Of a DNA stretch of 48,699 nt, positions 15,875 to 45,946 are shown one piece after another. The position numbers and the translations under genes are program-made. The notes under the pieces are model-generated. The model saw nothing but the letters and a program-made list of their open reading frames with translations. It did no database searches and was not told the origin of the DNA. Position 1 is the stretch's first letter. Each line of letters opens with the position of its first letter. This stretch comes from Thermoplasmata archaeon (lineage in GTDB: Archaea > Thermoplasmatota > Penumbrarchaeia > JAEHCK01 > GCA-020356005). The DNA lies in contig CP070629.1 of the NCBI GenBank assembly GCA_020356005.1, forward strand, positions 1,981,490-2,030,188, in the 5' to 3' direction.

Positions 15875-16275
15875 CTGAATATGAATAAAATTGAGGGTTA
15901 TTAAATTTTGTGGATTAAGAAGGTAGCCGTTTGATGTTTATTCAGTTTAGGTTATTAATTAATTTGGATTTTTTTCCGAAAAATCATAATTTTGAGCTTT
16001 CAAAGAGATTTATAATGCACATTTTCATTTTTTTTCAACAGGTCGAACCTACCACTGATTTTTAATTTTGTAAGAATTATTCAATGATTTAAAACCGGCC
16101 AAAATTATATTAAAAGAATAGTCATCGAATTCAACTTAGGACAGCCATCAGTACAGAAACTTTTAATTACTAGTAAAATATAACGAGTGAACCACATATA
16201 ATTTACAGTATTTTTATTTATATAAAAGTATTAACATTACCATTAAATATTGCCCAAAAAATATTGGAGAATACA

Positions 16276-16974
16276 ATGACAGATACCGAATCCACCGGCG
16301 GACAGGATCTAAAACAACGCCCCAAAACCCGATCAAATCCAGGGAGGACGAAAGCACGCTCCAGGCCCAGGAAGAAACCATGGGTTTACTCGTTACTATG
16401 GCTGCTGCCGCTTATATCGATCTTCATTCTCATATGGATGATCGTTCTGGAAATGGGCGTTGTAGGTTCGCAGGACAATCTGGGGGTAAGTTTAGACCAG
16501 TGGTTCATGCTGTCGGTTTTTATCATTATTTGTTGTATTATAATTATGATATTATCGGTGGTAGGTACACTGCTGGGCGAAACCAGTGCATCTGCTGCTG
16601 CTGCCGGTGCAGCAAAAGCAAAAGGAGCCCAGGGTGTTGTAATCGAGGCTGTACCTGAAGAAGATCAGGCTGAAACAGCGGTGGAAAAGGCAGTAGAGAA
16701 ACCAGCCAAAGAAGGTGCAGAGGCTGCAATAACAAAAGAAATGGCTAAGGAAGTTTCAGAGGAGCTTGGTGCCGAAGCAAAGGCAGAAGTGGTAAGTGCA
16801 AAGGCAAAAAAAGCACCATCTAAAGCAGTCTCAGCTGAAGATATCGCACCGAGAATAATAGAGTATCCCACTAAGGTCGGATCAGGACTTTACGGCGATA
16901 CCTACGTCAAAATCGGTAACAACCGCATTTTAAAACTTCGAACTATATTATTTGATGAAAGTAATTTGTACTAA
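16276..16974 (+). CDS. hypothetical 2-TM membrane protein with basic N-terminus and A/E/K-rich region
   Basis: RPKTRSNPGRTKARSRPRKK, two TM helices, then an alanine/lysine/glutamate-rich stretch. GGAGA lies 6 nt before ATG 16276; the track starts at TTG 16264. Confidence 0.55.
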   Translation: MTDTESTGGQDLKQRPKTRSNPGRTKARSRPRKKPWVYSLLWLLPLISIFILIWMIVLEMGVVGSQDNLGVSLDQWFMLSVFIIICCIIIMILSVVGTLLGETSASAAAAGAAKAKGAQGVVIEAVPEEDQAETAVEKAVEKPAKEGAEAAITKEMAKEVSEELGAEAKAEVVSAKAKKAPSKAVSAEDIAPRIIEYPTKVGSGLYGDTYVKIGNNRILKLRTILFDESNLY

Positions 16975-16984
16975 ACAGACAAAT

Positions 16985-17004
16985 TCTTTTATTATTTTTT
17001 CTTT
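16985..17004 (+). terminator. oligo-T terminator candidate
   Basis: tcttttattattttttcttt starts 11 nt after the stop at 16974. Archaeal terminators are typically T-tracts. Confidence 0.3.
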
Positions 17005-17256
17005 ATAAACCCATTTTTTCATAATATTTTTAAAAATATACAAAATAATGATTCTTATATTAAAAAAATAATGAAAAGTAAGGGCGTTTTAAAAACAAAA
17101 TTATGATGATTATTTTAATACGGTGATTATACTTTTAATATTACAGTCCAGTTACTTTTATATAATACTAATTCATTCATGTGTTTACAAGTATATTAAT
17201 TTTAAATATTAATGTATAAATAAAAATAAAAATTCTTGTTCGATTGAGGTGGTTAC

Positions 17257-20200
17257 TTGGCAAAAAGTAGATTAGTAGTTGTATTTGTAACAATTGTATT
17301 GTTAATAACTGTCCTACCACCCTTTATCCCCGATGCACCGGTGAAAGGCGGTGTAACAAAATACGGTAACGGGGATCTGGAGGTAGACGGCGTAACACAT
17401 ACAATTGACATGGACGGCACTTATCAGCATGAAGGTAATCTGACCGTTATAAATAACGGGAAGCTTATAATCCGGGACACAATTTTTAACTTTTTAACAC
17501 CAAACTATGAGCGCCATATAAAAATAGAATCCGGCGGAACACTGTCCTTAGAAAATTCAACCATGACGGTTAATCTGGACTCTATCAACTTCCGGGAGAC
17601 GCTGGATATCGATGTAAGCGGCAATGGTAAGTTTGAAATGGTTGACTCATATCTTCTTTGTGACGGAATATTAGATGTGGATAACGGGAATGTCTACATA
17701 AGGGATTCTACTATAGCTAGAAATACCGACGATGGGGGGATAAATGATACCTGTGTGGATATTTCATTAAAATCTGCAAGTTATATGAAAATAACCGATT
17801 CCAAAATAAACGATTATCCTATATTGGCTAACATTACAATTGACGGTACTTCAACCTTCGTAGCAATAAACACCTATCTGGACATCGATTTTGAAAAGTT
17901 AAGTACAAAACCGAGCAGATTAGAGATTAAAGGAAGTGCAAAAGCCTATCTCTATGGTGTAACAACGGTTGAACCCACTAATTTTCCGCCCGATGCATCT
18001 GCAATTGCCATAACAGGGGCGAATGCTATTGCGGAGATATATAAATGGGTAGGCCTCAAGGTTGAAGACGCTGCAGGTATACCGGTTGGCGGGGCTTCCA
18101 TTACCGTTCGGAACCTTACTAAAAGCGAACCTGTAGGCACACCTCGCAGTGAAATTCTTGATTATATTGGTAGGACTTCCACAACGTGGAATGTAAGTGC
18201 TAAGGACGGTACTACTTATTTCCCGTTACGAACCAACATTCTCAGATATGGTGGAGGGGATCCGACCAATAATTATACCGGAACTTATAATGTAACCGCC
18301 GAGTTAGAATCTTATGAGCCCAAAGCCCAGGCAGGTTTGAGCTTCAGCAGTTATCCGCGTTTACTGGCAAGTGAGAATATAATAAACGCCACACTACTAT
18401 TTAGTGAAATTGTCCCACCGGATCTGAATAATCATTTTTCTGATCGTCCGCCAGTAAAAATAATGGGCAACACGAAATTTACCAAACCAGTGCAGATCCA
18501 GGAGAACATAATTATCGATGGCGGGACGCTGACTTTAGACGGTACTGATATGAAGTTTACCCAGGACGGCAGCGAAATGTTCTTTATATTCATCAAGAGC
18601 GGTGGAAAGCTCATTATTAAAGATTCTAATGTTTGGGATGCTAAAGGACTGGGATTTCCAATCTATAATTTTGGAGGTACAATAAGTGTATCCAATTCGA
18701 TCCTCAATAATAAAGGAACAATAATTGTACTCTCCGGGGGCGATTTGAATTTTGATGCCACAGATTTCACAGGCGATTTTTATGTAAAGAGCCAAGGTTC
18801 AAATGTGACCATCACAGATGACTCGTATCTGGAAACCAAGAAAGTAACATTTAACTCTGCAACAGTTAGAATAGAAGACACTATATTAAATGCAACAGAA
18901 CCTGTTAAAACAACTGATGTAATGTTCACTGCTATAAACACAAGTTTTACACATATTTTAGAATTCAACGGTAATAGTGAAGCAGAACTTATTAATGTCA
19001 ACAGTTCAAGCCTAAGTGTTAACGACAACTCAATAGTAGAACGAGGTTGGTGGTTAATAGCGAATGTCACCGATGGAGGCGACAATGCTGTACCCGATGC
19101 AACAGTCGATGTGTATAATTATACCCTTCCGGGCGGTGAACTGAAATTATACAGTAACGGAACCACCAAAGTAACCGGTCAGGCAATAATAAAAGTCATA
19201 GGTGAAATCATCACACCGACACAAACCCTGAAGGGCATAGAGCGCAGCTATTATCTGAATGCAACCTATAAAGAAAAAGAATATGTATCGGATTCAGAGG
19301 GTTTCTCATCACCATCAACGAATATTATGAAGAAGGTATCTTTCACACAACTACCTGATTTGAAGGTGGAGGGTCTGACCATCACCGGTGAGAGGACCGA
19401 AGGTAAAATGTTGAAATTCAAGGCCACCATCAAGAATATCGGAACATTTGAAGCCCGAGATATTACCGTTCGATTCCTGGTAGATAATGAGATGATAGTT
19501 GCCGATCAACCAATTGGATATCTGGAAAAGAATAAGGCAACATCGGTAGAAGCCCAATGGTCCGCCGAACTGGGAGAGTTCCCGGTATCGATTATGGTGG
19601 ACCCCACGGAATCCATTGGAGAAAGTGATGAATTTAATAATTATTATAATACCACTCTTGAGGTCCAGACTGGCGCACCTGATATTACAGTCCACGCCGG
19701 CGATATCAATTTCAATCCGGTGAAGCCTACACTGGAACAGACGATAAACATATCAATTGCTGTTGGCAACACCGGAGATACAAATCCAATACATTTCGAT
19801 GACAATGAAGTATATGTTGATCTATACCTGGGTGATGTGATACCGGCAAACAAGATCAAGAATACGACGACGATAACTTCCATCGAACCCAACAGTTACG
19901 CATATGTTTACGCCGAACTTACTTTCAATGTAACAGGTACCTATACAATCACAGCAATAGCAACAACCTCTCTTGACTCGGACATGACCAATAACATAGG
20001 TTCGGCCCAATTCACGGTATATGATTACGCAGATCTGATTTTAAAGGGTGTTGATATAACATTCTCTCCAGGTGCAGAGGTCGCAAAAGGGACCGAGGTT
20101 ACCATCTGGGCTGATGTATTAAATTATGGCGAATCTGCAGCACATAATGTTAAAGTGGAGTTCTACGAAGGCTCACCCGATGAAGGCTCAAGCACATTAC

Positions 20201-22809
20201 TTGGTTCTGATACCTTAGATATTGTTGAAGCGGGAGGCTCATCTGAAGCTCAATTTATATTTTCTCCATCAACTACCGGACCGCACAATATCTATGTAGT
20301 GGTTGATAGTATGAACACCACCAGGGAGCTCAGTGAAAAGAACAATGTGGCGAACAATACCTTGAGAGTATTGAAGGAGCCGGATCTTTATGTCGATCCA
20401 GCAAAGATATCGTTATACAGCAGTGTACCCGGCCATATTGTAGAGGACGAGATGATTACAATCACCGCCGATGTTGCAAATATCGGTGAGACCCCGGCAG
20501 AAAATTTCATGGTTCATTTCTATTACAAGAGCACCAAAACGGGACCAATAGGCACAGCTTCAGTAACAAAATTAATTGCAGGTAATACAACCACGGTAGA
20601 GATAAACTGGAATCCGCCGGAGGTGGGCTTGTTCAATATAATCGTCTGGGCGGATGCACTTCAGACTGTAGTTGAAGACAATGAGGAGAACAATCAGAAT
20701 ATCAAGATCATACAAGTTTACAGTAAGCCGGACCTTACCATGGACCCGGAGGACTTTACCACCGACATATCCGCGGATCCGGTTGTAGTTCCGTACTCAA
20801 AGGTAGTCAAGATCAACACTACGATTCGCAACCGCGGTGATACAGATTCGTCTTCATTCTGGGTACAGTTCTTCGACGGCAATCCTACCACCACCGGAAT
20901 CCAGATCGGGTTGAATAAACGGGTAGCCGGTATTCCCTCCGGCGAACTCCGGTCTGTAGAAATCGAATGGACTGCAATTCCAGGCGGTAATCACAATATC
21001 TATTTCCTTATAGATGCTTATAACGAAATCGAGGAGAGCAATGAAGGTAATAATTCCATGGTGTTAAACATTTATGTAGAAACAGTACCGGATCTCAAGG
21101 TTATGCCGGAGGATATCAACATCCTCGCGGGCGCTTATGGAAAGAAGGGTCAAGCCACCGATATTAATGTAACAATCCACAATGATGGTGATACTGATTC
21201 TGACGACTTCTATGCACAGTTCTTCCTCGGTGATCCGCTGCATGATACAACCTTTGAACTGCTTGAGAAGGTAAAAGTAACGGGAATTGCCGGCGGTATG
21301 GTAGGATACGCAGAGATAACCTGGACGCCAGAAGATTTCGGCATGCAGAAGATCTATGTGTGGGTCGATAGGGAAGAAACCATTTTCGAGCTCAGCGATA
21401 ACAATAATGTTGCAGGTAAAACATTTGAAGTACTGTTTTCAGCACCGGATGTTACGGCTTACGCAAATGAAATAAAGATTCTTGAAGCTGGAACAGAAAC
21501 ACAAGCAACATCCTATCAAACCGGCACCTCCTACATGTTTACCTTCAAAATCCATAATGTAGGCGATGAGACCATTACCGATTTCAATGTATCGGTTACT
21601 TACACCGGTCCGGGTGAAACTGGAGGGTTCTTGGGCGAAACTGAACATCAACTCATATCCAGTATAGAAACCAACTCCTTTGTTAACTTCGAAGAGGCCT
21701 GGACTCCAGCGTTTGATGGTTACTATGTATTTACAATAACTCTGGACAGTTCAGAACAATACCGGGAATATAACGAAACGGATAATATCATAACCACCGA
21801 ACCGTTGAAGGTAAATGTCAAACCCAATTTCTCCGTTATTAGAGCAAATGTTTTTATCTCGAACACAGAACCAAACATTGGCGAAATGGTAACAATCGAG
21901 ATCACTGTAACGGCTACGGGCAATTACTCAATAGGTGATCAAACACCGCCATTATCAATGACAATGACCGTTGATGGAACACCTCAGCCAACGGCAACTG
22001 CTACAATTACAAATGGACAAGCTGTCTTCACTTTTGAATGGACACCGGATACAGGGGGTTTCCCCATTCTTGAATTCACTATCAAACCTGATGACCGTAT
22101 AAAAGAAACCACAGATGCTGACAATACAGTGACTATAAATGATATCCTTGTCGGCGGTGCAGCCCAAGCAGACGATAAAGAGGAAGAGGGTTCCTCAATG
22201 ATGCTACTGATTATAATAATTATAATTATCATCGTGGTAATCGTGGTCCTGCTCCTTATAATGAAGAAGCGGAAAGGCAAGGAACCCATTGAATGTCCGG
22301 AATGCGGTGAAATGGTACCGGCAGGTGAAACGGAATGTCCGGAATGCGGTGCTGAAATTCTGCCACCGCCTGAAGAGGTGGAATGCAGTAAATGCGGTGC
22401 TTTGATAACAACGGAAGACGAGACCTGTCCGGAATGCAACGAGCCTAACGAGGCCTATGTGCCGCCGGTGGTAGGTGAAGGCGAGGAGGGAGTCGAAGGA
22501 GAGGTACCAGCTCCAGAAACACCCCAAGCTGTTCCTGGGGCGGCACCCAAGAAGGGTAGGAAACCCAAGGGAAAGGCGGCGGCGGCAGCCCCCGGGCCAA
22601 CACCCGCACCGGTACCACAGGCGGCTCCTGGTGCAGCACCGGCACCCGCGCCTGCCGCGCCCGGAATGCCTGAGGACGATCTGGCAGGCCTGGATGATAT
22701 AGAAATGATGGGAGAAGAAGGTGAAGGCGAAGCTGAATGTTATAAATGCGGCGCCCGTGTGCCTCTTTCCGTCCCGAAATGCCCCGTATGCGGTGCTGAT
22801 TTCGAATAA
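17257..22809 (+). CDS. giant type-I membrane surface protein GA1: signal/anchor, beta-helix-like repeats, 8 CARDB-like domains, TM, cytoplasmic tail with three zinc ribbons
   Basis: 1850 aa. TTG start preceded by GAGGTGG. N-terminal hydrophobic segment, then repetitive G-rich beta-strand motifs (NGKLIIRDTIFNF, GGTLSLENSTMTV, GGTLTLDGTDMKF). Eight units of about 110-120 aa begin with PDL/PDI/PNF and end in a ..NN.. motif. TM is MMLLIIIIIIIIVVIVVLLLIM. Ribbons are CPECG..CPECG, CSKCG..CPECN and terminal CYKCG..CPVCG. Confidence 0.85.
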   Translation: MAKSRLVVVFVTIVLLITVLPPFIPDAPVKGGVTKYGNGDLEVDGVTHTIDMDGTYQHEGNLTVINNGKLIIRDTIFNFLTPNYERHIKIESGGTLSLENSTMTVNLDSINFRETLDIDVSGNGKFEMVDSYLLCDGILDVDNGNVYIRDSTIARNTDDGGINDTCVDISLKSASYMKITDSKINDYPILANITIDGTSTFVAINTYLDIDFEKLSTKPSRLEIKGSAKAYLYGVTTVEPTNFPPDASAIAITGANAIAEIYKWVGLKVEDAAGIPVGGASITVRNLTKSEPVGTPRSEILDYIGRTSTTWNVSAKDGTTYFPLRTNILRYGGGDPTNNYTGTYNVTAELESYEPKAQAGLSFSSYPRLLASENIINATLLFSEIVPPDLNNHFSDRPPVKIMGNTKFTKPVQIQENIIIDGGTLTLDGTDMKFTQDGSEMFFIFIKSGGKLIIKDSNVWDAKGLGFPIYNFGGTISVSNSILNNKGTIIVLSGGDLNFDATDFTGDFYVKSQGSNVTITDDSYLETKKVTFNSATVRIEDTILNATEPVKTTDVMFTAINTSFTHILEFNGNSEAELINVNSSSLSVNDNSIVERGWWLIANVTDGGDNAVPDATVDVYNYTLPGGELKLYSNGTTKVTGQAIIKVIGEIITPTQTLKGIERSYYLNATYKEKEYVSDSEGFSSPSTNIMKKVSFTQLPDLKVEGLTITGERTEGKMLKFKATIKNIGTFEARDITVRFLVDNEMIVADQPIGYLEKNKATSVEAQWSAELGEFPVSIMVDPTESIGESDEFNNYYNTTLEVQTGAPDITVHAGDINFNPVKPTLEQTINISIAVGNTGDTNPIHFDDNEVYVDLYLGDVIPANKIKNTTTITSIEPNSYAYVYAELTFNVTGTYTITAIATTSLDSDMTNNIGSAQFTVYDYADLILKGVDITFSPGAEVAKGTEVTIWADVLNYGESAAHNVKVEFYEGSPDEGSSTLLGSDTLDIVEAGGSSEAQFIFSPSTTGPHNIYVVVDSMNTTRELSEKNNVANNTLRVLKEPDLYVDPAKISLYSSVPGHIVEDEMITITADVANIGETPAENFMVHFYYKSTKTGPIGTASVTKLIAGNTTTVEINWNPPEVGLFNIIVWADALQTVVEDNEENNQNIKIIQVYSKPDLTMDPEDFTTDISADPVVVPYSKVVKINTTIRNRGDTDSSSFWVQFFDGNPTTTGIQIGLNKRVAGIPSGELRSVEIEWTAIPGGNHNIYFLIDAYNEIEESNEGNNSMVLNIYVETVPDLKVMPEDINILAGAYGKKGQATDINVTIHNDGDTDSDDFYAQFFLGDPLHDTTFELLEKVKVTGIAGGMVGYAEITWTPEDFGMQKIYVWVDREETIFELSDNNNVAGKTFEVLFSAPDVTAYANEIKILEAGTETQATSYQTGTSYMFTFKIHNVGDETITDFNVSVTYTGPGETGGFLGETEHQLISSIETNSFVNFEEAWTPAFDGYYVFTITLDSSEQYREYNETDNIITTEPLKVNVKPNFSVIRANVFISNTEPNIGEMVTIEITVTATGNYSIGDQTPPLSMTMTVDGTPQPTATATITNGQAVFTFEWTPDTGGFPILEFTIKPDDRIKETTDADNTVTINDILVGGAAQADDKEEEGSSMMLLIIIIIIIIVVIVVLLLIMKKRKGKEPIECPECGEMVPAGETECPECGAEILPPPEEVECSKCGALITTEDETCPECNEPNEAYVPPVVGEGEEGVEGEVPAPETPQAVPGAAPKKGRKPKGKAAAAAPGPTPAPVPQAAPGAAPAPAPAAPGMPEDDLAGLDDIEMMGEEGEGEAECYKCGARVPLSVPKCPVCGADFE
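19351..22152 (+). other. array of 8 CARDB-like domains within GA1
   Basis: Units start at LPDLKVEG, APDITVHA, YADLILKG, EPDLYVDP, KPDLTMDP, VPDLKVMP, APDVTAYA and KPNFSVIR. Each has the ..V.N.G... and ..E.nE.NN signature. Confidence 0.75.
22198..22806 (+). other. GA1 TM helix plus cytoplasmic P/A-rich tail with zinc ribbons
   Basis: TM at 22198-22263 followed by KKRKGK (positive-inside). Cys pairs at 22294-22440 and 22738-22794. A P/A-rich tract (APAPAPAAPG) lies between them. Confidence 0.75.
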
Positions 22810-36347: not shown

Positions 36348-36386
36348 GTCTGGTATATTATATGGAAGTAGAATGTATAAATAAAG

Positions 36387-37370
36387 GTGATGGCAATGTC
36401 AACCAATCATGTTATACCCCGAAACGGTAAACATAGACGGTTTCGCAGGCACATTCGATCTACATACAGGTCGAAAGTGAATGCCCGCAGAAGATTTTTT
36501 AAAATGGATTCCAGGGCAGTTTCCAATATAGTTACATCTATAATGATGCTGGGAATTATATTCACACTCCTGGGTATGGTTTTAACCGTTTATGTCCCGA
36601 TCTGGGCCAAATCTCTGGAAGCACAGCATATGGAGGAGGTTGCTAATGCCTTCACGGATCTTAAAAGTACAGTAGATTCACAGATCGCACAGGGTGATGA
36701 AGGAACGACCATGTCCACAAGGGTCCGGCTCGGCACAGAGGGCGGCCCCTTGCTCGGGCTGGGCCAGTCCACGGGCTCACTGCAGTTCCAACCCGAAAGT
36801 TCAATGATGAGTATTTATAATTCCAACGATACCTTCGAGAAATACGGTACAGGCCGGGGAAGATTGGCGTTCGAATCCCACAACATCTATTATGTTGACC
36901 AGAGGTATATTTACGAAAACGGCGCAATCATCCTGGATCAAGAGGGCCAGACGCTGATGAAAGTGAAGCCAAATTTTTTCATCAATAATGTCTCGGGCAC
37001 CAACGAGTTCTCAACGGTTATGATCGGTTTACAGGGCGACCTCGATAACGTGGGAGGAATCAAGAGCCAGACAGTACAAACCACACTCCTTTCCGGTAAC
37101 AAGAACACGCTCTATTGGGGCGAAAGCTCCAGACCGGGCACTGGCAAAAACCTGACAATATCAATTAATACAAGCTTCCCGCTCGTATGGAATCAATATT
37201 TTGATGATTTGTTAAAAAACCAGTCAGGGTTGAACCAATCTGAATATTATATAGCCGCCCCGTCGGTGATAGGAGATCCAATAGATAACTTCTGGAGGAT
37301 CGATGTTACTATACGCGATGTAAATAAATTTACCACAACGATTTCATATGTAGAATTGATAATAACATAA
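36387..37370 (+). CDS. pilin-like class III signal peptide protein SP2 (paralog of SP1)
   Basis: MDSRAVSNIVTSIMMLGIIFTLLGMVLTVYVPIWAK. Blocks TGSLQFQP and YENGAIILDQ match SP1. AGGTGA SD. The start could be GTG 36387, ATG 36390 or ATG 36396. Confidence 0.75.
   Translation: MMAMSTNHVIPRNGKHRRFRRHIRSTYRSKVNARRRFFKMDSRAVSNIVTSIMMLGIIFTLLGMVLTVYVPIWAKSLEAQHMEEVANAFTDLKSTVDSQIAQGDEGTTMSTRVRLGTEGGPLLGLGQSTGSLQFQPESSMMSIYNSNDTFEKYGTGRGRLAFESHNIYYVDQRYIYENGAIILDQEGQTLMKVKPNFFINNVSGTNEFSTVMIGLQGDLDNVGGIKSQTVQTTLLSGNKNTLYWGESSRPGTGKNLTISINTSFPLVWNQYFDDLLKNQSGLNQSEYYIAAPSVIGDPIDNFWRIDVTIRDVNKFTTTISYVELIIT
36507..36596 (+). other. class III signal peptide and pilin helix of SP2
   Basis: D-S-R-A|V-S-N followed by a hydrophobic helix. 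Confidence 0.65.
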
Positions 37371-37374
37371 GAGT

Positions 37375-37790
37375 ATCGGAGCGTTTTGATTTTATATTGA
37401 TTTTTATCACTCACAGAGCGTTAAGCTTAGTCATTGATTATAAGCACTCACGGAGCACTTCAATGGTATAACGATTGAAAGCGTTCTCGGTAAGGATGCA
37501 TATATACAAGAAGATGAGAAATGCAGCATGCGGCAGGCAGCAAGTTTAATTAAAAATAGGGATTAGGGATTTGGACGGTTGCTACGCAACCTTTGGGGAT
37601 TAGGGTGATTTTACAAGGACTCATGACCCAGGACCCAGGACCCAGGGTCTTGCTCTTACATTCTTCCACTTTTACACAATTCTACTCTTTAACTTGTCCT
37701 GAGAGCGCTTCAAATCGAAATCCAAGCAGAGCGCTCTGAATGGCTCTTATAATTAATATATAGAAAAACGCTCCAATAGTCCATCGATAG
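37375..37790. repeat. composite spacer joining family B, a family A half-copy and family D (AGGACCC heptamers)
   Basis: agcgttttgattttatattgat sits just after the stop codon. gggattagggatttggacggttgctacgcaacctttggggattagggtgatttta is a family A left arm only. It is followed by tgacccaggacccaggacccagggtc, then family B words again. Confidence 0.7.
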
Positions 37791-38084
37791 GTTTATATAA
37801 CCGTAGTCACTAATACAAGATAATACCACCGTAAAGTATATAATACGAAAAATATTACTCTTATATTCCTAGAATTAAATAGACATTATTATATATAATT
37901 CATAGTAAGGTGTGAATATATAGAACTGGATGAATTGACTGAATACAAGGAAATAATAAATAAGTAACAAGGGGGCAAGTAAGGAGAGCAGCTGATTTTT
38001 CCCTATAATGATTAATCCCTTGCATCTTAAATGAGGTTCGAGACCATAGAGCTGTTTTACAGAAGCGGAAAGGAGAACTTGAAA

Positions 38085-41000: not shown

Positions 41001-44000
41001 GGCGACCCGAACTCGGGCGGTTTCCGAATCGGATTCAATACCACAATCGAGCCAGTAGAGGCCAACGGAGGCACGGTGAATGCCCAGATAGAATGGACGC
41101 CGCTGACCACCGGCACGCACCGCATATTTATTTTAATCGATCCTGACGGGCTTGTACAGGAGGCAAAGACCAGCAACAACATCGCGAATGTTTCCATTGA
41201 TGTCATTCCCAAGCCCAATTTGTATGTTGAAACCAGCGACATACAATTCTCGGCGAACCCCATCATGGAGGGCGAGCCGCTGAACATTCAGGTCCTCATA
41301 CATAATGACGGCGAGGTTAACGTTGGGTCTGTTACCATCAGGGTGACGCTGGACTCACTGGACAGCACCGCAATTGTTCCGGATATACAAATCGTAAGCG
41401 TCCCTGCAAACGGTTATTTCAATTTGCCGATAACATGGCCTTCGGCGGAACCCAACGGAACGCACAGCATTTATATCTGGATAGACCCGAACAACAAAAT
41501 CCCGGAGTCCAACAAGTTCGATAATTACGCATCCAAAACCCTTATAATAACGAAGACGATTGACCTCCGCATTACTGCTGATGATATTTATTTTAATGAT
41601 GCTTCGAACTCCACCGATATCGAATATGGCAAAGAGCTGAAAATAACCGCCAGGGTATGGAACGACGGCGGTTCACCTACAATCTCCGAGTTCATCGTGC
41701 AGTTTTATCTTATAACCAACGAAGGTGAGACGCAGCTGGGCTCAGACCAAACCGTGCCGACCATTCAGCCCGCCGGCTATGCCGACGTAAATTTAACATG
41801 GATCGCAAATCTCAGCGGCACGCACACGATCCAGGTGCTTGTGGACCCCTCGGGACTGGTTTTGGATTCCAACCGCGTCAATAACAAGGCGAGCAAGGAC
41901 TTCAAGGTAAACGATCCGCCCGACTTTGCGGTCACAGTGGAAGCTGCATTGTTTTCCACTGGTGCCACTGTGAAAGCCGGTGAGGCCATCACCATAACCG
42001 CAATGGTGCAGAACCGCGGTGATACCGGCTGGGGGCCGGTGGAGGTGATGTTCCACGACGGCGATCCCACAGATACGATAAACCCGTCCAAGCAAATAGG
42101 TACAACAAAACTCATAGAGTATCTTCAACCGCACGGTCAGCAGGAGATCAATACCAGCTGGACGGCCGAAGTCGAGGGTGAGCATCAAATATATGTCAGT
42201 GTAGATTTTAAAGAGAAGGTCCCTGATTCGGACAGGAGAAACAATCTGGATTTCGGTATAATAGAAGTGCTGACGCACGCACCGGATCTTAATCTAACGA
42301 AAATCGAGTACAGTCCCACATCAGTAACCGAAGGCGATCTGGTTTACATCAATATAACCATCCAGAACATCGGTAATATAGATGCCACCTCGGTGGTTAT
42401 CGGTTTATACAAGGACGATTATAAAAATGATAATTATATGATAGACCAGTTCGCCATGGGTAATATTTCGGTTGGTGAATCGGTAATATATAATTATGAA
42501 TGGACCGGAGCGGTTGCAGAGGGGCATTACGAGCTTTACATTGTCCTGGACCCGTTCAATACGATCAAGGAGTTCAATGAGCGTAATAATGTCAACGAGG
42601 ACAATCCCATAGAGATCGGAGTGGAAGGAGCGCAAAAGTGGCCGGATCTTAAGTTCGAAGATACCGAAAGCTGGATTATAATATCACCCTCAAAACCGCG
42701 GGTGGACGAATTAGTAGTTTTCTCAATTTACATAATCAATGTGGGCGATGTGCTCATACGAGATGTTATCGTGGTTTTGAAAAACGGCGACGAGGAGCTC
42801 GCCAGGTCGGAAATACTGGAGACTCTGGATAAACAGGAAACTGAAATCATGGAGATAACCTGGGTACCTGACAAAAAAGGAACCTTTACACTTACATTCG
42901 AGATAATCACATCGAACAATATCGAAGAAATCACAGATGAAAATAATATTAAGGATTACACGGTGAATGTGGCCGAATCAGAAGATGATAGTGATGACGT
43001 AAGCTCGCTGTTCGGCGCTGCAATCGCCACTGTTGTAATGATTGTGATTTTGGTTGTTATCGTTTTGCTGTTGATCGGCAGCAAGCGGAGAATAACGGAG
43101 TGGGCAGAATGCAGTGAATGCATGGAAAAAATGCCGCTTGAAGCATCCATATGCCCAAGCTGCGGTGCAGAATTTTCTGATGAGATGGAGTGCGGTGAAT
43201 GCCACAGCCTCATATCCGTTGAAGATACACGCTGTCCCAACTGCGGCGCTGCATTTATAGAGGATATGGAGGGGAGGAAGAAGTCGTTTCTGGGTATCGG
43301 TGAAGGACGCGTCGAGGAAGCCCCGGAGACCGCTGATCTGAGCGGCCCGGCGCCTATCGAAACCATAGATGAGGATACTATCCAGGACGCAGAAGAGATA
43401 GAGGAAGATATGCTTGATGTGGATTATGATGAGCCGGTAGTACCGCCGGCCCCGCCTGTACCGAAGGAGAAGCCCAAGAAAGTAAAGAAGGAGAAGGAAG
43501 AGGAAGAGCTGGAGAAAAAGGAGAAAGAGGAGGAAGAAGAGGAAGAGGAGAAAGAGAAGAAGGAGGAGAAGGAGGAGAAGGAGAAAGAGGAGGAAGAAGA
43601 AGAGGAGGGAGAAATCGAGCTTGACGACGAGGAATTCCAGGAATTCGAAAAGGCGCTTGACGAAGAGGAAATCGAAGAGCTCGAGGAGGCTCCCGGGGCA
43701 GGATTGGAAGCCGAGGCAGGAGATGAGGGCAGGAAGAAAGAGAAGAAAAAGAAGCTGAAGAAGCACAAGAAGGGCCGGCCGGCGGATAAGGGCGCAAAAA
43801 AGGAAGAGAAGAAGCCGTCAGAAGTAAAAGAGGCGGTGGAGAAGAAGGAACCGGAAAAGAAGGACGAAAAGGAAAAGGAGAAAGAGGAAGAGAAGAAGGA
43901 GGAAGAGGAAGAGAAGGATGATTTTGTCATTCCGGATGCGAAGTGGACCGCCGAATGCTATAAATGCAATGCAAGAATCCCCTTATCGGCTTCAAAATGT

Positions 44001-44027
44001 CCCGAGTGCGGCGCAGAGTTTGAGTGA
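38085..44027 (+). CDS. giant type-I membrane surface protein GA2 (paralog of GA1): beta-helix-like repeats, 8 CARDB-like domains, TM, cytoplasmic E/K-rich tail with three zinc ribbons
   Basis: Same architecture and order as GA1. AAGGAG lies 8 nt before ATG 38085; the longest ORF starts at 38031. Signal/anchor is LITVFVISLLFVSL. TM is AAIATVVMIVILVVIVLLLIG. Ribbons are CSECM..CPSCG, CGECH..CPNCG and terminal CYKCN..CPECG. Confidence 0.85.
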   Translation: MVKFRGRKIGEISQRLITVFVISLLFVSLTEFIGFEPVEGEVKEDSYGNLLIDGGSVHEINMGGGTYQMQGNITVTGAGSTLLIRNTTMKFLKGAGFKYHIDVKDGALLQIKNSEITVDLTAGGSEERVDFFITNSDFIMENSSIKLPGEFHASSSNITFNYSLLSKNPSGGSVTHSLVLNFTDCNVLMVEHMIYNFKSGEDIYLRGTTNFSAIKSELNLTSSNTLQLHDNATAKLYSISVTSKTSNSVISIQSSYAYAEIFRLLTLDVTDVTEVPVGGALVTPRNYSNKKMAPLPAEEILTYLDRTIGNYNITDYLGRVILPLRSDNITDIGIEYTGNYLLDVELSSYSVEGGYSLKPFPNFYNIYNNPYHALSFGSQIPPELNGHYSKALPPLTITKPVTFNSPLQLQQNLIIDGGTLTVTGTDLEMNQSATNRFYILLKNGGKLNLIKSKLSDPGNWPLNVYTMDSSEIMVRTSTLNLGSGILSLRNGSKLEMNASSMVGSINSIGPGNTILIEEDSSVASKNMVLVKSDVTLKDVSITTVGSIRTEQLQFTVKNTTFNKPLTFKSDSKAYLTNVTFSGVPSPTITIKDTSEVHVNWWLTVRVVDGGKNLLEKATVHLYNYSLSGDKLHYGDSETDASGLALFEVYSEMRNASGSYKGIERNYYLNATYRSAKSNSLGTPPLTANKLMELEFDLAADLKLADIDVVGNLFAGNNLMINATVTNVGDFDLNTTEIAIRFEINGIALGTDEKLDRLSVDESAVVNKNWVASLGTHIINVTVDPSDKIGEKNESNNKLTTIETISVSGPDLGLSTTDIEFDPGVPTKGTNLTVTAKITNYGGYDPADNGDPITVKFYLNDPALIGTQIGETQTVDSIPPTTSRTVQINYTIPMEGNYNIFVVVETPFDSSLANNKVNRTLIIYTLPDLYISNTDITFTSTSDFIVESPVFIRAVLRNIGGTAVDNVGVAFYDGDPNSGGFRIGFNTTIEPVEANGGTVNAQIEWTPLTTGTHRIFILIDPDGLVQEAKTSNNIANVSIDVIPKPNLYVETSDIQFSANPIMEGEPLNIQVLIHNDGEVNVGSVTIRVTLDSLDSTAIVPDIQIVSVPANGYFNLPITWPSAEPNGTHSIYIWIDPNNKIPESNKFDNYASKTLIITKTIDLRITADDIYFNDASNSTDIEYGKELKITARVWNDGGSPTISEFIVQFYLITNEGETQLGSDQTVPTIQPAGYADVNLTWIANLSGTHTIQVLVDPSGLVLDSNRVNNKASKDFKVNDPPDFAVTVEAALFSTGATVKAGEAITITAMVQNRGDTGWGPVEVMFHDGDPTDTINPSKQIGTTKLIEYLQPHGQQEINTSWTAEVEGEHQIYVSVDFKEKVPDSDRRNNLDFGIIEVLTHAPDLNLTKIEYSPTSVTEGDLVYINITIQNIGNIDATSVVIGLYKDDYKNDNYMIDQFAMGNISVGESVIYNYEWTGAVAEGHYELYIVLDPFNTIKEFNERNNVNEDNPIEIGVEGAQKWPDLKFEDTESWIIISPSKPRVDELVVFSIYIINVGDVLIRDVIVVLKNGDEELARSEILETLDKQETEIMEITWVPDKKGTFTLTFEIITSNNIEEITDENNIKDYTVNVAESEDDSDDVSSLFGAAIATVVMIVILVVIVLLLIGSKRRITEWAECSECMEKMPLEASICPSCGAEFSDEMECGECHSLISVEDTRCPNCGAAFIEDMEGRKKSFLGIGEGRVEEAPETADLSGPAPIETIDEDTIQDAEEIEEDMLDVDYDEPVVPPAPPVPKEKPKKVKKEKEEEELEKKEKEEEEEEEEKEKKEEKEEKEKEEEEEEEGEIELDDEEFQEFEKALDEEEIEELEEAPGAGLEAEAGDEGRKKEKKKKLKKHKKGRPADKGAKKEEKKPSEVKEAVEKKEPEKKDEKEKEKEEEKKEEEEEKDDFVIPDAKWTAECYKCNARIPLSASKCPECGAEFE
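40176..42969 (+). other. array of 8 CARDB-like domains within GA2
   Basis: Units start at AADLKLAD, GPDLGLST, LPDLYISN, KPNLYVET, TIDLRITA, PPDFAVTV, APDLNLTK and WPDLKFED. Confidence 0.75.
43008..44024 (+). other. GA2 TM helix plus cytoplasmic zinc-ribbon / E-K-rich tail
   Basis: TM at 43008-43079 followed by SKRR. Two ribbons follow immediately, then an E/K low-complexity tract, then the terminal ribbon. Confidence 0.75.
43461..43920 (+). repeat. near-homopurine GAA/GAG/AAG low-complexity tract encoding the E/K-rich tail
   Basis: About 460 nt dominated by A/G on the plus strand, e.g. gaggaagaagaggaagaggagaaagagaagaaggaggagaagg. Confidence 0.8.
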
Positions 44028-44110: not shown

Positions 44111-44115
44111 ACCCG

Positions 44116-44129: not shown

Positions 44130-44151
44130 GTAATTTAATCTTAATAGTGCC

Positions 44152-44775
44152 ATGGAACCCTACCTCGTTATAGTTTTAACAATTTTTATCCTAATAGTGC
44201 TTCTTATAATTTATCAGATTTACCGCTGGTATCAACTCTATTTGCGTGCGCAGGAATACAAGAGCCCCGGTGGGGGTACCAAAGTCTTGAAAAAGCCTGT
44301 TCCAAGGTACCAGCTTGTGTACGGCAGCAGCTATCTACTTTTAGAAGATAAATCGGTGGAAAGCTTCAAGTTATTTTCAAGCTACATATCGCAGGGCAGC
44401 AAAGGGCTGCTTATAACGCGCATTTTCCCGGCAAAGGTTCGCAAGCAGTATAATCTCGGTAATACACCTGTACTGTGGCTCAGCCGCACGCAGGAGGGCA
44501 AGGCGATAAATCCCACGAACCTGGGCGTGCTGGTGGAGGAGGTACGGGAATACATAAAGAAGAACCGTAAAACGATAATACTGCTGGACGGATTGGAATA
44601 CCTAATAATCGAGAACGATTTCGAGCGTGTACTGAAATTTATCAACAGCCTTGAGGATGAGATCGCTCTCCATAATTCAAGACTGCTGGTGTCTGTTAAC
44701 CCGAAAGTTCTAGACCCTGAGAAAAAGGCACTACTTGAAAAGACTTCAAAGGTGCTAGTGGGAGATGAGAAATAG
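44152..44775 (+). CDS. DUF835-family membrane-anchored protein
   Basis: N-terminal TM (LVIVLTIFILIVLLIIYQI), then GLLITRIFP..VLWLS....INPTNL......IILLDGLEYLIIENDFERVLKFINSLED. These match the DUF835 pattern as I recall it. Confidence 0.7.
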   Translation: MEPYLVIVLTIFILIVLLIIYQIYRWYQLYLRAQEYKSPGGGTKVLKKPVPRYQLVYGSSYLLLEDKSVESFKLFSSYISQGSKGLLITRIFPAKVRKQYNLGNTPVLWLSRTQEGKAINPTNLGVLVEEVREYIKKNRKTIILLDGLEYLIIENDFERVLKFINSLEDEIALHNSRLLVSVNPKVLDPEKKALLEKTSKVLVGDEK

Positions 44776-44814
44776 CTATAAGATTATTTTAATTATTGAA
44801 AGCTGTAAAAGCTT

Positions 44815-45160
44815 TCAGGTTGCGTTATGCGGTTGCAGTGGCGAGGGGCGTAACGTTGGGCGTCTAACGTTTAGCGGCTTTTAATTCTAATACATTATCC
44901 AATACGAGTTTCAATACATTTTTACACGACGAACGTCGCTACCGCTTGACGTAACGCATATCGCAACCGCTGAAGAGATTGCCGGCGTTGACTAGTTGCC
45001 CACACCGACCAGAAAAAAATGATTTCGAGGTGTAGGGCCGTGCAGAATAAAACAGTATATTGTCATTAGGATATACTTGTCAACGCTCGGCGGTGCCGTT
45101 ATATCAATGTAAATTTAAGTCGGTACGCACCTCGCAACCACTCAACGTTTACCGCTTTTC
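44815..45160. repeat. family C-derived large inverted structure
   Basis: ggttgcagtggcgaggggcgtaacgttgggcgtctaacgtttagcggc lies on the left. cggtacgcacctcgcaacc (45121-45139) is the exact reverse complement of the 19-mer at 10463-10481 and 47631-47649. Confidence 0.7.
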
Positions 45161-45186
45161 TATAAGCAATCTGAAATCATTTATTC

Positions 45187-45203
45187 TTTGTTATATATAA
45201 TTT
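45187..45203 (+). promoter_or_regulatory. TATA-box candidate for a leaderless KaiC-like ATPase transcript
   Basis: tttgttatatataattt is centred about 32 nt upstream of ATG 45227. Confidence 0.4.
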
Positions 45204-45226
45204 AATAACAACTTTTATCAATATGA

Positions 45227-45946
45227 ATGGATTATACAGCCTATGGTGAGCCGGTTATGGTGAAGCTGTTGAAGACCTACATACGCGGTTTTGACGAGGA
45301 GATCGGAGGGGGGATACCCCTGGGCCATGTGGTGCTGGTAACAGGCAGCCCGGGCACGATGAAATCCACGCTGGCGTACAATATCTTGTATAATGCAGTA
45401 AAACGCGATAAAATGAGCTCGTTGTACATATCGCTTGAGCAGAGCAGCCGGTCGCTGCTGTTCCAGATGGTTCGATGCGGTATGAAGGAAACCTTCGGCG
45501 ACGATCTGCTTATTGTTGACCTGGCCAAGATCCGCAAGCAGCTGGACGAAGCCCGTGATAAACCGTGGCTGGAGATACTTCGCAAGCACATCCAGTATAT
45601 CATAGCCAAGAACCGCTATCAGATAATAGTCATCGATTCTCTGCCCGTACTTGAGATACTGACCAGGATGGAAAATAAGCGCACACAGTTCTTCCATTTC
45701 TTCGAGTGGCTGCGTGACCTGAAGCTCACCTCGTTCATAATCACCGAGATCTCTGACGATCCCACTATTCTGCGGGACGAGGAGTTTTTAGCGGACGGCG
45801 TGATATATCTTTCCATGAAGCAGGTGGGCGAGATAGATATCCACCGCCGTATCAGGTGCATCAAGATGAGGGGAATGGACCATTCCACCAGCCAGTTCAC
45901 ACTGGAGTTTAAAAAGAACGAATTTAGAGTGACGAGGGCAATATAA
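45227..45946 (+). CDS. single-domain KaiC/RecA-superfamily ATPase (ArlH/KaiC-like) with atypical Walker A
   Basis: GFDEEIGGGIPLGHVVLVTGSPGTMKSTLA. Walker A reads GSPGTMKS (45344-45367), with M where the conserved G of GK[ST] sits. Also YISLEQS, Walker B QIIVIDSL, and a C-terminal RRIRCIKMRG. 239 aa. Confidence 0.8.
   Translation: MDYTAYGEPVMVKLLKTYIRGFDEEIGGGIPLGHVVLVTGSPGTMKSTLAYNILYNAVKRDKMSSLYISLEQSSRSLLFQMVRCGMKETFGDDLLIVDLAKIRKQLDEARDKPWLEILRKHIQYIIAKNRYQIIVIDSLPVLEILTRMENKRTQFFHFFEWLRDLKLTSFIITEISDDPTILRDEEFLADGVIYLSMKQVGEIDIHRRIRCIKMRGMDHSTSQFTLEFKKNEFRVTRAI

Follow-up and report, generated by a model that had tools for sequence, protein, structure and literature searches.

A Thermoplasmata gene block for probable surface and regulatory components of a type IV pilus-like adhesion system

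Introduction

Type IV pilus loci of archaea repeatedly contain KaiC ATPases, large adhesins, and S-layer-like proteins with a C-terminal anchor (Makarova, Koonin & Albers 2016, PMC4858521), and loci with large adhesins and anchored S-layer-like proteins have also been outlined by Sivabalasarma & Albers (2026, bioRxiv 10.64898/2026.04.22.720090). In the latter work, a two-gene platform is a trait of system 1 and PilB3_N/C extensions of the ATPase are a trait of system 2; binding proteins bearing class III signals are proposed there to functionalise archaeal type IV filament machines. In bacteria, Streptococcus sanguinis PilB combines a pilin module with a vWA module and has been proven to act as a tip adhesin, and the largest bacterial modular pilin named in the same source has 860 aa (PMC8179133). 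In the type IV pili of bacteria, minor pilins enter a priming complex with vWA adhesins of the PilY1 and TadG type (PMC7541494, PMC9210963).

Here, we describe a 30-kb block of genes within a 48.7-kb stretch of DNA from a Thermoplasmata archaeon (the whole analyzed stretch is referred to below as the window). The block resembles one half of an adhesion system akin to type IV pili, comprising the surface-exposed and the regulatory components. Loci of this general kind are known from archaeal type IV pili, with large adhesins, KaiC regulators, and anchored proteins resembling those of S-layers; the present form is without earlier description and is distinguished by modular pilins of ~2,000 residues and by the link between zinc ribbons and KaiC. 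To our knowledge, archaea of the Thermoplasmata type occur abundantly in sediments and hydrothermal systems, most lack cultured representatives, and their attachment to particles or partner cells is largely unexplained. The block provides candidate parts: giant modular pilins more than twice as long as the largest bacterial example in PMC8179133, two minor pilins that accompany them, and giant anchored proteins of an unnamed but very common family. In that family, the zinc-ribbon tail and the genomic association with KaiC-like ATPases point to a possible signalling route between the cell surface and a pilus motor. The locus also offers a functional lead for DUF7289, DUF835, and hundreds of giants annotated as "hypothetical" or "zinc ribbon domain-containing" in public MAGs.

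Results and Discussion

Nine co-directional genes with a pilin-like operon at the center

ORF calls placed all nine genes on the plus strand (window coordinates):

16264 to 16974, plus strand: small TM protein, 236 aa, two TM helices
17257 to 22809, plus strand: GA1, 1850 aa, type I membrane giant
23130 to 28970, plus strand: GP1, 1946 aa, giant modular pilin-like protein
29021 to 35077, plus strand: GP2, 2018 aa, GP1 paralog
35082 to 36347, plus strand: SP1, 421 aa from the likely start, DUF7289 pilin-like protein
36387 to 37370, plus strand: SP2, 327 aa, second DUF7289 pilin-like protein
38085 to 44027, plus strand: GA2, 1980 aa from the likely start, GA1 paralog
44152 to 44775, plus strand: DUF835 protein, N-terminal TM helix and degenerate KaiC-like (iKaiC) domain
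45227 to 45946, plus strand: KaiC-like ATPase, 239 aa, single-domain KaiC/ArlH-like RecA fold

A preliminary description of this DNA had proposed the same nine consecutive genes in this order, and the ORF calls bear it out. The three paralog pairs that it named were also recovered: GA1 and GA2 are 30% identical over 1803 columns (full length), GP1 and GP2 46% over 1234 columns (55% over the C-terminal 328), and SP1 and SP2 34% over 176 columns (E 3e-30). Profile-HMM searches with Pfam confirmed the predicted domains (Pilin_N, CARDB, VWA, zinc ribbon, DUF835, and KaiC). GP1 and GP2 are separated by 50 nt, GP2 and SP1 by 4 nt, and SP1 and SP2 by 39 to 48 nt (50, 4, and about 40 nt had been reported), with a GGTG/GGAGG Shine-Dalgarno motif ahead of each downstream gene (GP2, SP1, and SP2), and the four genes probably form one operon. 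Upstream of GA1 and GA2 lie 282 nt of 18% GC and 714 nt of 37% GC, respectively, in agreement with the 280 and about 700 nt given previously. Since GA1, GA2, DUF835, and KaiC each have a separate upstream region (124 to 714 nt), a joint transcript with the GP-SP core is unlikely.

The 48.7-kb window contained no T2SSE ATPase among all of its ORFs (phmmer with the ATPases of three relatives; Pfam), and neither a T2SSF platform gene, an A24 class III signal peptidase (PibD/FlaK/EppA; Pfam), nor a small major pilin gene was found within it.

GP1, GP2, SP1, and SP2 carry class III signals and pilin-like helices

All four products of the probable operon have a K/R-A cleavage motif followed by ~20 hydrophobic residues. 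GP1 and GP2 matched Pilin_N (31.9 and 28.2 bits, respectively; Pfam cut-off 25.2). In GP1, residues 18 to 47 (nt 23181 to 23270) comprise the class III signal peptide with the hydrophobic helix, and cleavage is predicted between RA and VTEALG; in GP2, the signal lies at nt ~29111 to 29221, with cleavage predicted between KA and VSEALG. This N-terminal helix is the single TM-like helix of GP1. GP2 has, in addition, an acidic linker and a C-terminal TM anchor (residues 1990 to 2008, nt 34988 to 35044), which is kept in the orthologs L018_GPb, L004_GPb, and P0016 and missing in GPb of loci L008 and L010. CARDB domains were detected in both proteins (Pfam). GP1 further contains two "VVDDDG" domains of ~230 aa without family assignment, a VWA match (25.7 to 31.7 bits; Pfam), and MAM/Reelin-B-like C-terminal domains, and GP2 an InhA-like MAM domain (Pfam). 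The GP1 VWA bears a variant MIDAS-like motif, DNSET (nt 26721 to 26747), and GP2 the canonical DTSNS (nt 32702 to 32728); of the full MIDAS pattern (DxSxS...T...D), the DxSxS part was mapped, and it was present in 17 of 19 GP homologs checked. The GP family comprised 26 matches, with relatives of up to 2555 aa.

SP1 and SP2 both matched DUF7289 (50.2 and 41.2 bits; Pfam cut-off 27). The SP1 ORF opens at 35055; the likely start, 35082, agrees with database entry P0001, lies 4 nt past the GP2 stop codon, and is preceded by GGCGGAGGTGA. Its class III signal is predicted to be cleaved between RA and LSSLITVAG, and a TM helix is predicted. SP2, with a probable start at 36396, has the corresponding site between RA and VSNIVTSIMMLG. 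For SP2, the motif WAK..E..H was invariant in the alignment. The AlphaFold model of SP2 is poor (pLDDT 39) but shows a beta domain behind an N-terminal helix of 60 residues.

GP1 and GP2 resemble S. sanguinis PilB in that an N-terminal class III signal and pilin helix precede a vWA domain with a MIDAS and in that their genes adjoin those of small minor pilins; a tip location and an adhesive role would be expected. Unlike the bacterial modular pilins, they are 1946 and 2018 aa long (to 2555 aa in relatives, versus 860 aa), use the archaeal Pilin_N rather than the N-methylation domain, and carry many extra domains, including the second, C-terminal anchor of GP2. As with PilY1 and TadG, a large vWA protein is encoded with a set of minor pilins, with presumed functions in filament priming or capping and surface sensing. 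However, PilY1 is not itself a pilin and has a C-terminal beta-propeller; no Pfam match to that propeller or to a DUF2341-type domain was obtained in GP1 or GP2, and sequence homology to PilY1 is limited to the vWA fold.

Relatives of the GP-SP core adjoin a type IV filament motor

Gene order is kept by orthologs in other metagenomes, where GA1, GA2, GP1, and GP2 each have their own ortholog, indicating that the duplications are old. GA2 orthologs, for example, occupy the same place in L004 and L005 (56% identity). The preliminary description had proposed searching for the whole arrangement in relatives: the GP-SP core proved widely syntenic, whereas the GA-bracketed arrangement was confined to one close clade. 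The synteny of the GA-bracketed order says little on its own, because these close relatives also share flanking housekeeping and HTH genes.

In more distant Thermoplasmata relatives (L008, L009, L010, L012, L014, and L015), a PilB3-type T2SSE ATPase is encoded directly after the second DUF7289 gene, whose product is 35 to 40% identical to SP2; SP1 homologs adjoin pilus ATPases in L008, L010, L012, L014, and L015. Two T2SSF genes (a split platform) follow the ATPase in L012, the one cassette locus that reaches further. The relatives' PilB3-type ATPase has N- and C-terminal extensions, so that their loci mix traits of archaeal type IV pili: the split platform of system 1 and the PilB3_N/C extensions of system 2. 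Together, the class III signals and the adjoining ATPase and T2SSF genes of relatives assign the GP-GP-SP-SP cassette to a type IV filament system, as its pilin/adhesin module.

The block had been taken to stand apart from described systems, a view that is not supported, given the type IV pilin-like GP and SP proteins, the motor genes adjoining the relatives' cassette (including the split T2SSF in L012), and the type IV pilus loci with such parts outlined in PMC4858521 and bioRxiv 10.64898/2026.04.22.720090. Shared with these loci are proteins of several sizes that bear class III signal peptides, a large signal-peptide "adhesin or minor pilin" accompanied by a large protein with a C-terminal anchor, nearby KaiC-family ATPases, and, in relatives, PilB3-type ATPase and T2SSF platform genes. 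Unlike in these loci, motor and peptidase genes are absent from this window. Searching PMC4858521 and bioRxiv 10.64898/2026.04.22.720090 by terms, we found neither the GP architecture, the DUF7289 pair, nor the zinc-ribbon tail of the GA proteins. The proposal of a dedicated adhesion or cell-contact apparatus is consistent with the evidence, and the linkage of its parts recurs in a distant locus (L022, below).

We favor, with moderate confidence, the interpretation that the block supplies the extracellular and regulatory components of a type IV filament (type IV pilus-like) system for adhesion that is specific to Thermoplasmata; the function of the cluster is deduced from sequence. GP1, GP2, SP1, and SP2 would be cleaved by a prepilin peptidase and assembled by a PilB3-type ATPase and a split TadB/TadC-like platform encoded elsewhere in the genome. 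SP1 and SP2 may serve as minor or priming pilins, and GP1 and GP2 as giant modular pilins docked by their pilin helix to a short filament, at its tip or its base. Their ectodomains of ~1,900 residues (CARDB, two alpha/beta-like domains, vWA with MIDAS, and MAM/Reelin-like sandwiches) would bind ligands on surfaces, polymers, or other cells. GP2, anchored at both ends, fits a classical pilus poorly, and its C-terminal membrane anchor favors a membrane-proximal display structure over a long free pilus.

This double anchoring of GP2 would also suit a bindosome-like arrangement, in which the class III signal only anchors GP on a pseudopilus stub and GP captures macromolecular substrates (detrital protein or polysaccharide) for feeding. 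The missing major pilin gene in the cluster, the InhA-protease-type MAM domains, an M14+C11 peptidase fusion encoded directly behind the GP pair of L011, and the class III binding proteins proposed on archaeal filament machines (bioRxiv 10.64898/2026.04.22.720090) point in the same direction. However, Pfam searches revealed no solute-binding or catalytic domain in GP1 or GP2, Pfam and NCBIfam found no solute-binding protein domain in the GP and SP proteins, and pilin-borne vWA/MIDAS modules are documented adhesins (PMC8179133). We regard substrate capture as quite unlikely, although it overlaps with the adhesion reading to an extent that sequence alone cannot separate.

GA1 and GA2 belong to a large family with a fixed plan

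GA1 begins with a signal peptide and a head (~residues 30 to 700) of two beta-helix modules, each with a transthyretin/CnaB-like sandwich, followed by ~7 to 9 Ig-like CARDB repeats. Pfam detected seven CARDB stretches in GA1 and eight in GA2 (E 3.7e-84 and 3.3e-77, respectively), and DZR/zinc ribbons behind the C-terminal TM helix in both. In GA1, this helix (residues 1650 to 1668, nt 22204 to 22260) precedes a predicted cytoplasmic tail with three zinc ribbons (nt 22285 to 22440 and 22735 to 22806). GA2, whose ORF opens at 38031 and whose likely start at 38085 lies behind AAGGAG, follows the same plan: the TM helix (nt 43020 to 43076) is followed by a double zinc ribbon (nt 43110 to 43247) and a terminal zinc ribbon (nt 43956 to 44018), separated by a Glu/Lys-rich low-complexity linker of ~250 aa. 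A profile search with the GA head returned 375 representative clusters, a large uncharacterised Thermoplasmata family that is common across MAGs of this group. Among the listed matches of at least 1200 aa (n = 93), a late TM helix was present in 87 and CxxC zinc ribbons behind it in 84, usually three. The members share a fixed plan that runs from a signal peptide through a beta-helix head and a CARDB stalk to a TM helix and a predicted cytoplasmic tail, usually with three zinc ribbons.

Such a plan, with its signal peptide, long Ig-like stalk, and single C-terminal anchor, could be that of a main coat, in which GA1 and GA2 are the chief S-layer/glycocalyx proteins, their tails tie the coat to the cytoplasm, and pilus genes adjoin because filaments cross the coat. 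Consistent with this, GA1 and GA2 contain 31 to 37 N-glycosylation sequons, the family is widespread, and S-layer-like C-terminally anchored proteins are known from archaeal type IV pilus loci (PMC4858521; bioRxiv 10.64898/2026.04.22.720090). Foldseek yielded one partial match to the Sulfolobus S-layer protein SlaB (145 columns, E 1e-3, low TM-score). However, GA1 and GA2 had no sequence match to a known S-layer family in Pfam or NCBIfam, are just 30% identical to each other, and bracket a pilin operon. We know of no characterised S-layer protein that has cytoplasmic zinc-ribbon tails. In the AlphaFold model of GA1 residues 1 to 700 (pLDDT 76), the beta-helix head is closer to adhesins and glycan-binding proteins than to lattice domains; Foldseek matched it to pertactin, Ag43, PL6 lyases, and tailspikes, in each case with a low TM-score. 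We consider the main-coat role improbable. In the adhesion system that we favor, GA1 and GA2, with a beta-helix head on a CARDB stalk, would be co-adhesins or S-layer-like envelope partners of the filament, and the three-zinc-ribbon tail would couple them to cytoplasmic partners.

Distant GA loci adjoin the same motor subfamily

Whether the GA, DUF835, and KaiC genes belong functionally with the GP-SP core depends on loci outside the close clade. L012 has core and motor but no GA, DUF835, or KaiC within ~6 kb downstream of the platform genes, and none was found in the 10 kb upstream of the GP pair in L008 and L010; GA and KaiC are thus not obligatory partners of the core. In both distant GA-family loci inspected (L020 and L022), however, the GA gene lies within ~1.5 kb of the same ATPase/platform subfamily, and the ATPases next to GP/SP cassettes are closely homologous to those next to GA genes (E 1e-158 to 1e-210). 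The order in L020 is GA-family gene, purP, T2SSE, and two T2SSF genes. In L022, AAA-DUF835, KaiC, a DZR protein, a second KaiC, and a coiled-coil-DZR protein precede the GA-family gene, which is followed by an operon with two PilB3-like ATPases, two T2SSF genes, and an SP homolog (match to SP2, E 1e-22). GA-family, DUF835, the same KaiC subfamily, SP homolog, and pilus ATPase/platform operon all lie within 17 kb. L011 has the trio of DZR (minus strand), KaiC, and coiled-coil-DZR genes ahead of its GP pair, the same trio as in L022. Directly behind that GP pair is the M14+C11 peptidase fusion.

These loci bear on the view that the block is a surface-protein island, in which GP-GP-SP-SP is a pilus module and GA1, GA2, the small TM protein, DUF835, and KaiC are chance neighbors in an envelope region without shared function. 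The separate upstream regions and probable own promoters of GA1, GA2, DUF835, and KaiC would fit this view, as would the larger size of the GA family (375 clusters versus 26 GP matches), the restriction of the GA-bracketed order to one close clade, and L012. Chance neighborhood accounts less readily for GA genes beside the same motor subfamily in two of two distant loci, for four window families (GA, DUF835, the same KaiC subfamily, and SP) recurring together in L022, and for KaiC and zinc-ribbon proteins directly ahead of the GP pair in L011. We consider an unrelated island unlikely.

DUF835 and the KaiC-like ATPase as a putative regulatory pair

The DUF835 protein matched its Pfam family with 125.6 bits (E 1.5e-36) and, weakly, FlaH in NCBIfam; DUF835 has been given as iKaiC (PMC5847659). 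A TATA box, TTTATATA, lies 32 nt upstream of the gene, which makes a promoter of its own and a leaderless transcript probable. An ortholog is present in L005, and the AAA-DUF835 protein of L022 is a homolog (E 6e-20). The KaiC-like ATPase, preceded by a 451-nt spacer and likewise with an ortholog in L005, matched PF06745 with 136.7 bits (cut-off 26.6; positions 1 to 226 of 231). Its Walker A motif, GSPGTMKS (nt 45344 to 45367), keeps the Lys and Ser of GxxxxGK[ST] and has Met in place of the Gly before Lys; the L022 homolog encoded behind AAA-DUF835 (39% identity, E 1e-54) has the same variant.

Like ArlH (FlaH), the window protein is a single RecA-fold domain of the KaiC superfamily (~230 to 240 aa), and like ArlH and the archaeal KaiC hubs it has a genomic tie to a type IV filament system and a degenerate KaiC-like partner. 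Archaeal KaiC ATPases, reportedly described as a "signalling hub" by Makarova in 2017, are paired with DUF835/iKaiC domains (PMC5847659). Unlike ArlH, the protein has GSPGTMKS rather than GxxGxGK[ST], and its score fell far below every NCBIfam cut-off (ArlH, 64 versus 215 bits; KaiC_arch_3, 90 versus 249). No archaellum genes were found at its locus. Membership in the two-domain clock KaiC, ArlH, and KaiC_arch_1-4 families was rejected on the basis of the single domain and these scores. Within the favored adhesion system, the membrane-anchored DUF835 protein (inactive KaiC-like) and the KaiC/ArlH-like ATPase would form a regulatory pair for the filament ATPase, a role modeled on that of ArlH with ArlI in the archaellum.

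A bolder idea, to which we give little credence, is that the three-zinc-ribbon GA tails, soluble coiled-coil/zinc-ribbon proteins, two KaiC-like ATPase subfamilies, and membrane-anchored DUF835 constitute an unrecognised archaeal outside-in coupling device. The zinc-ribbon tails of the giant GA surface adhesins would relay contact or load across the membrane to KaiC-type ATPases, which would gate the type IV filament motor that deploys the ~2,000-residue vWA pilins. If true, this would be an integrin-like adhesion-signalling complex made of unrelated parts.

The first gene of the block encodes a small protein with a basic N terminus, TM helices at residues 44 to 62 and 82 to 100, an Ala/Glu/Lys-rich region, and a conserved C terminus of ~40 aa. 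It had no match in Pfam or NCBIfam and was not found in any of the distant loci. An ortholog is encoded in L018, also upstream of GA1 (E 4.7e-56).

Gene organization of the cluster

The cluster (16264 to 45946) consists of nine consecutive plus-strand genes, in the order small transmembrane (TM) protein, GA1, GP1, GP2, SP1, SP2, GA2, DUF835, and KaiC. This layout, put forward in the preliminary description, was borne out by our ORF list in both coordinates and sizes, and pairwise sequence comparison showed that the three proposed paralog pairs (GA1/GA2, GP1/GP2, and SP1/SP2) are all real. Each predicted domain was confirmed by a profile-HMM check against Pfam: CARDB repeats (n = 7 to 8) and double zinc ribbons in the giant anchored proteins GA1 and GA2; Pilin_N over threshold and CARDB in the giant pilin-like proteins GP1 and GP2, plus VWA (GP1) or an InhA-like MAM domain (GP2); DUF7289 in the small pilin-like proteins SP1 and SP2; and DUF835 and KaiC domains in the remaining two genes. 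In a hydropathy scan, GA1 and GA2 each showed a signal peptide and a single late TM helix, which places their zinc ribbons in the cytoplasm. A single N-terminal hydrophobic helix is present in GP1, SP1, and SP2, whereas GP2 combines such a helix with a TM anchor at its C terminus.

The spacing proposed earlier agreed with ours after likely starts were adopted for SP1 (35082, the same as in database entry P0001) and GA2 (38085, with AAGGAG in front). Gaps of 50, 4, and about 40 nt separate GP1, GP2, SP1, and SP2, with a GGTG/GGAGG motif at each; GA1, GA2, DUF835, and KaiC each have a separate upstream region. The DUF835 gene has a TTTATATA box 32 nt 5′ of its ATG. The 714 nt of noncoding DNA 5′ of GA2 (37371 to 38084) hold GACCCAGGACCCAGGACCCAGG and several TATA-like boxes; no element was identified there, since neither the Rfam nor the tRNA scan of the whole window gave a match. 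A promoter/terminator scan of the window used bacterial models and was uninformative for an archaeon.

GP and SP proteins as probable type IV filament components

GP1, GP2, SP1, and SP2 share an archaeal prepilin signature (basic residues, R/K-A, V/L-S/T..., and ∼20 hydrophobic residues). GP homologs (26 matches; 27 to 72% identity) keep the N terminus and overall plan and almost always occur as tandem pairs. In the close clade (loci L004, L005, and L018), the order GA-GP-GP-SP-SP-GA-DUF835-KaiC is retained, each paralog having its own ortholog. In distant relatives (L008, L009, L010, L012, L014, and L015), a PilB3-type T2SSE gene, encoding the pilus secretion ATPase, lies directly 3′ of the second DUF7289 gene, followed in L012 by two genes for the T2SSF platform. 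This adjacency of the motor (T2SSE and T2SSF) suggests that the cassette is part of a type IV pilus-like machine. Scans with an SP2 alignment yielded one locus from GTDB genomes and five from metagenomes, which limits the statistics. No T2SSE or T2SSF homologs were found anywhere in the window, and its first 16 kb contain ordinary archaeal genes (including TruD, DUF63, Nog1, and HTH regulators) and no pilus motor; the window's lineage appears to have split the GP/SP cassette from the motor genes. We consider it likely that the GP and SP proteins form part of a type IV filament system.

A third GP-like paralog lies outside the window on the same chromosome (3,578,571 bp). This protein (P0024; UCH88963.1, JSV49_12130) is annotated as a 2405-aa “hypothetical protein” and has a full-length relative, P0023, of 2555 aa with Pilin_N. 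Its locus might be where the ATPase and platform genes absent from the window lie.

A PDB sequence search with GP1 gave no match, and the two “VVDDDG” domains of GP1 (∼230 aa each) could not be assigned to any Pfam family, even at E = 1. For SP2, the AlphaFold model (pLDDT 39) was too poor for a fold search. Sorting of GP2 by the PGF-CTERM/archaeosortase route was rejected, as its tail has no PGF motif, and the 45- to 47-aa ORFs between the SP genes of L008 and L010 were rejected as conserved components, their sequences being unrelated.

Several relatives showed further features. In L019 (10001 to 26555), three GP-type giants follow one another in tandem, the stop codon of one overlapping the start codon of the next, and a STAND-like AAA_16/TPR ATPase and a small Ras/Arf-like GTPase are encoded upstream on the opposite strand; an NB-ARC-like ATPase occupies the equivalent position in L010 (8049 to 9467). 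Directly 3′ of the GP pair in L011 is a gene (15400 to 17721) that fuses an M14 carboxypeptidase to a C11 clostripain-like peptidase, which hints that some such systems may act in capturing or degrading protein. One GP homolog, P0204 (WP_455393166.1; 2040 aa; in the same 90% cluster as P0017), bears the RefSeq label “[Eubacterium] cellulosolvens,” for which an archaeal contig within a bacterial assembly is the likeliest explanation.

The GA proteins and their large, unnamed family

We built a GA head profile from GA1, GA2, and database protein P0037 and used it in an exhaustive HMMER search of 1.84 billion representatives. The profile matched 375 representative clusters (63 at <1e-30), and the GA proteins are members of a large unnamed family. 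Among the matches listed with at least 1200 aa, a late TM helix was present in 87 of 93, and CxxC-type zinc ribbons, mostly three, followed the helix in 84 of 93. Named members are Thermoplasmata MAG proteins titled “hypothetical” or “zinc ribbon domain-containing.” AlphaFold modeled residues 1 to 700 of GA1 (pLDDT 76) as two parallel beta-helix modules with a small beta-sandwich after each. Foldseek matched this head to pertactin, Ag43, PL6 lyases, tailspikes, and transthyretin/CnaB-like domains; global TM-scores were all low, so the fold class alone is supported. A PDB sequence search with GA1 returned isolated CARDB-like domains only. The 2427-aa protein 3′ of the SP genes in L017 was rejected as a GA homolog, having neither a GA head profile match nor a Pfam domain.

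The cytoplasmic tail of GA2 contains ∼250 residues of nearly pure Glu/Lys low complexity between the double and terminal zinc ribbons (43250 to 43950), which accounts for the extreme skews of that kilobase (GC, +0.37; AT, +0.39). In GA1, a Pro/Ala-rich linker occupies this position.

Linkage of GA, DUF835, and KaiC to the pilin cassette

The proposed synteny held for the GP/SP core, which stands beside the motor in distant relatives; the GA-bracketed order was seen only in the close clade, where synteny is weak evidence for a GA link because flanking genes are shared too. Two distant GA-family neighborhoods were inspected. L020 contains, in this order, a GA-family gene, purP, T2SSE, and two T2SSF genes, as well as small zinc-ribbon proteins. 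L022 has the order AAA-DUF835, KaiC (39% identical to the window KaiC), zinc-ribbon protein (opposite strand), second KaiC, coiled-coil zinc-ribbon protein, and GA-family gene; 3′ of the latter, an opposite-strand operon encodes two PilB3-like ATPases, two T2SSF proteins, and a DUF7289-like pilin. The ATPases beside GP/SP cassettes and those beside GA genes are close homologs. In addition, a trio comprising a minus-strand zinc-ribbon protein, a KaiC, and a coiled-coil protein with two zinc ribbons at its end is conserved: it lies directly ahead of the GP pair in L011 (1 to 2405) and ahead of the GA-family gene in L022 (6370 to 9860). The trio KaiC is 66% identical between L011 and L022 (second KaiC) and forms a subfamily distinct from the window KaiC (about 28 to 30% identity).

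By our own rough estimate, a few percent of random genes would be expected to have a pilus motor within 10 kb. Against this expectation, the motor near both distant GA loci is suggestive of a GA-filament linkage, as a count of two and not a statistic. The fetched flanks of L012, L008, and L010 contained no GA, DUF835, or KaiC gene, which counts against an obligatory link. We regard the case for GA and DUF835/KaiC as functional partners of the filament system as evenly balanced.

Proposed mechanism and comparison with known systems

In the mechanism that we propose, GP1, GP2, SP1, and SP2 would be substrates of a class III signal peptidase and, once processed, of the PilB3-type motor that assembles them, with the DUF7289 pair SP1/SP2 as putative minor or priming pilins. 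GP1 and GP2 would be giant modular pilins offering vWA/MIDAS, MAM/Reelin-like, CARDB, and two “VVDDDG” domains to ligands. Of 19 GP homologs, 17 retain the MIDAS DxSxS motif. The C-terminal anchor of GP2 is clade specific; together with the lack of a major pilin gene in the window, it favors a structure that is short and lies close to the membrane. GA1 and GA2 may be co-adhesins or S-layer-like partners. Zinc-ribbon tails, recurring soluble zinc-ribbon proteins, and KaiC genes suggest cytoplasmic coupling, in which modulation of the motor would fall to DUF835 and the single-domain KaiC/ArlH-like ATPase. DUF835 is a degenerate KaiC domain (PMC5847659), and a 2016 census proposes KaiC-family ATPases as motor modulators in other archaeal type IV pilus loci (PMC4858521). 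We modestly favor this combined model of a GP/SP filament module with GA and DUF835/KaiC partners.

The preliminary description knew of no described archaeal system with this combination. The implied separation from known systems was not supported: the GP/SP cassette is probably a type IV filament module, and the kind of system is already known, since the 2016 census and a 2026 preprint (bioRxiv 10.64898/2026.04.22.720090) describe archaeal type IV filament loci with large signal-peptide “adhesin or minor pilin” proteins. They also report, in filament loci, large S-layer-like proteins anchored at the C terminus, accessory proteins that are Ig-rich or beta-helical, and ATPases of the KaiC family. 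The original observation was confirmed and its interpretation was supported in part. A term search of both works found no ∼2,000-residue pilin architecture, DUF7289 pair, GA family with a fixed zinc-ribbon tail, or recurrent KaiC/zinc-ribbon/DUF835 neighborhood, and a literature search found no mention of DUF7289. The relatives' motor combines two traits that the preprint puts in different systems, a split platform and PilB3-type ATPase extensions. Streptococcus sanguinis PilB, a pilin-vWA fusion, is a demonstrated adhesin modeled at the pilus tip (PMC8179133); GP1 and GP2 would mirror it, and at ∼2,000 residues they exceed the largest bacterial modular pilin named in that work (860 aa). The GP and SP set can also be likened to PilY1/minor-pilin priming complexes.

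Genes surrounding the cluster

Other features in the window are as follows.

14698 to 15021, minus strand, winged-helix regulator (TrmB-like), just 5′ of the cluster and divergent from it
15425 to 15874, minus strand, winged-helix regulator (HTH_20/ArsR-like), just 5′ of the cluster and divergent from it
3392 to 4819, plus strand, secreted 475-aa protein with ∼8 “DLGTLGG” repeats (weak DUF3466 match) and, at the C terminus, a FIMAH domain
47860 to 48597, minus strand, 245-aa ORF with three CHB_HEX_C_1/Fn3_assoc repeats

The winged-helix proteins (14698 to 15874) could be local regulators or merely synteny common to close relatives; L018 has the same three small minus-strand genes 5′ of its cluster as the window. 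The secreted 475-aa protein is a further surface protein unrelated to the cluster, and the 245-aa ORF may belong to a larger surface protein close to the end of the window.
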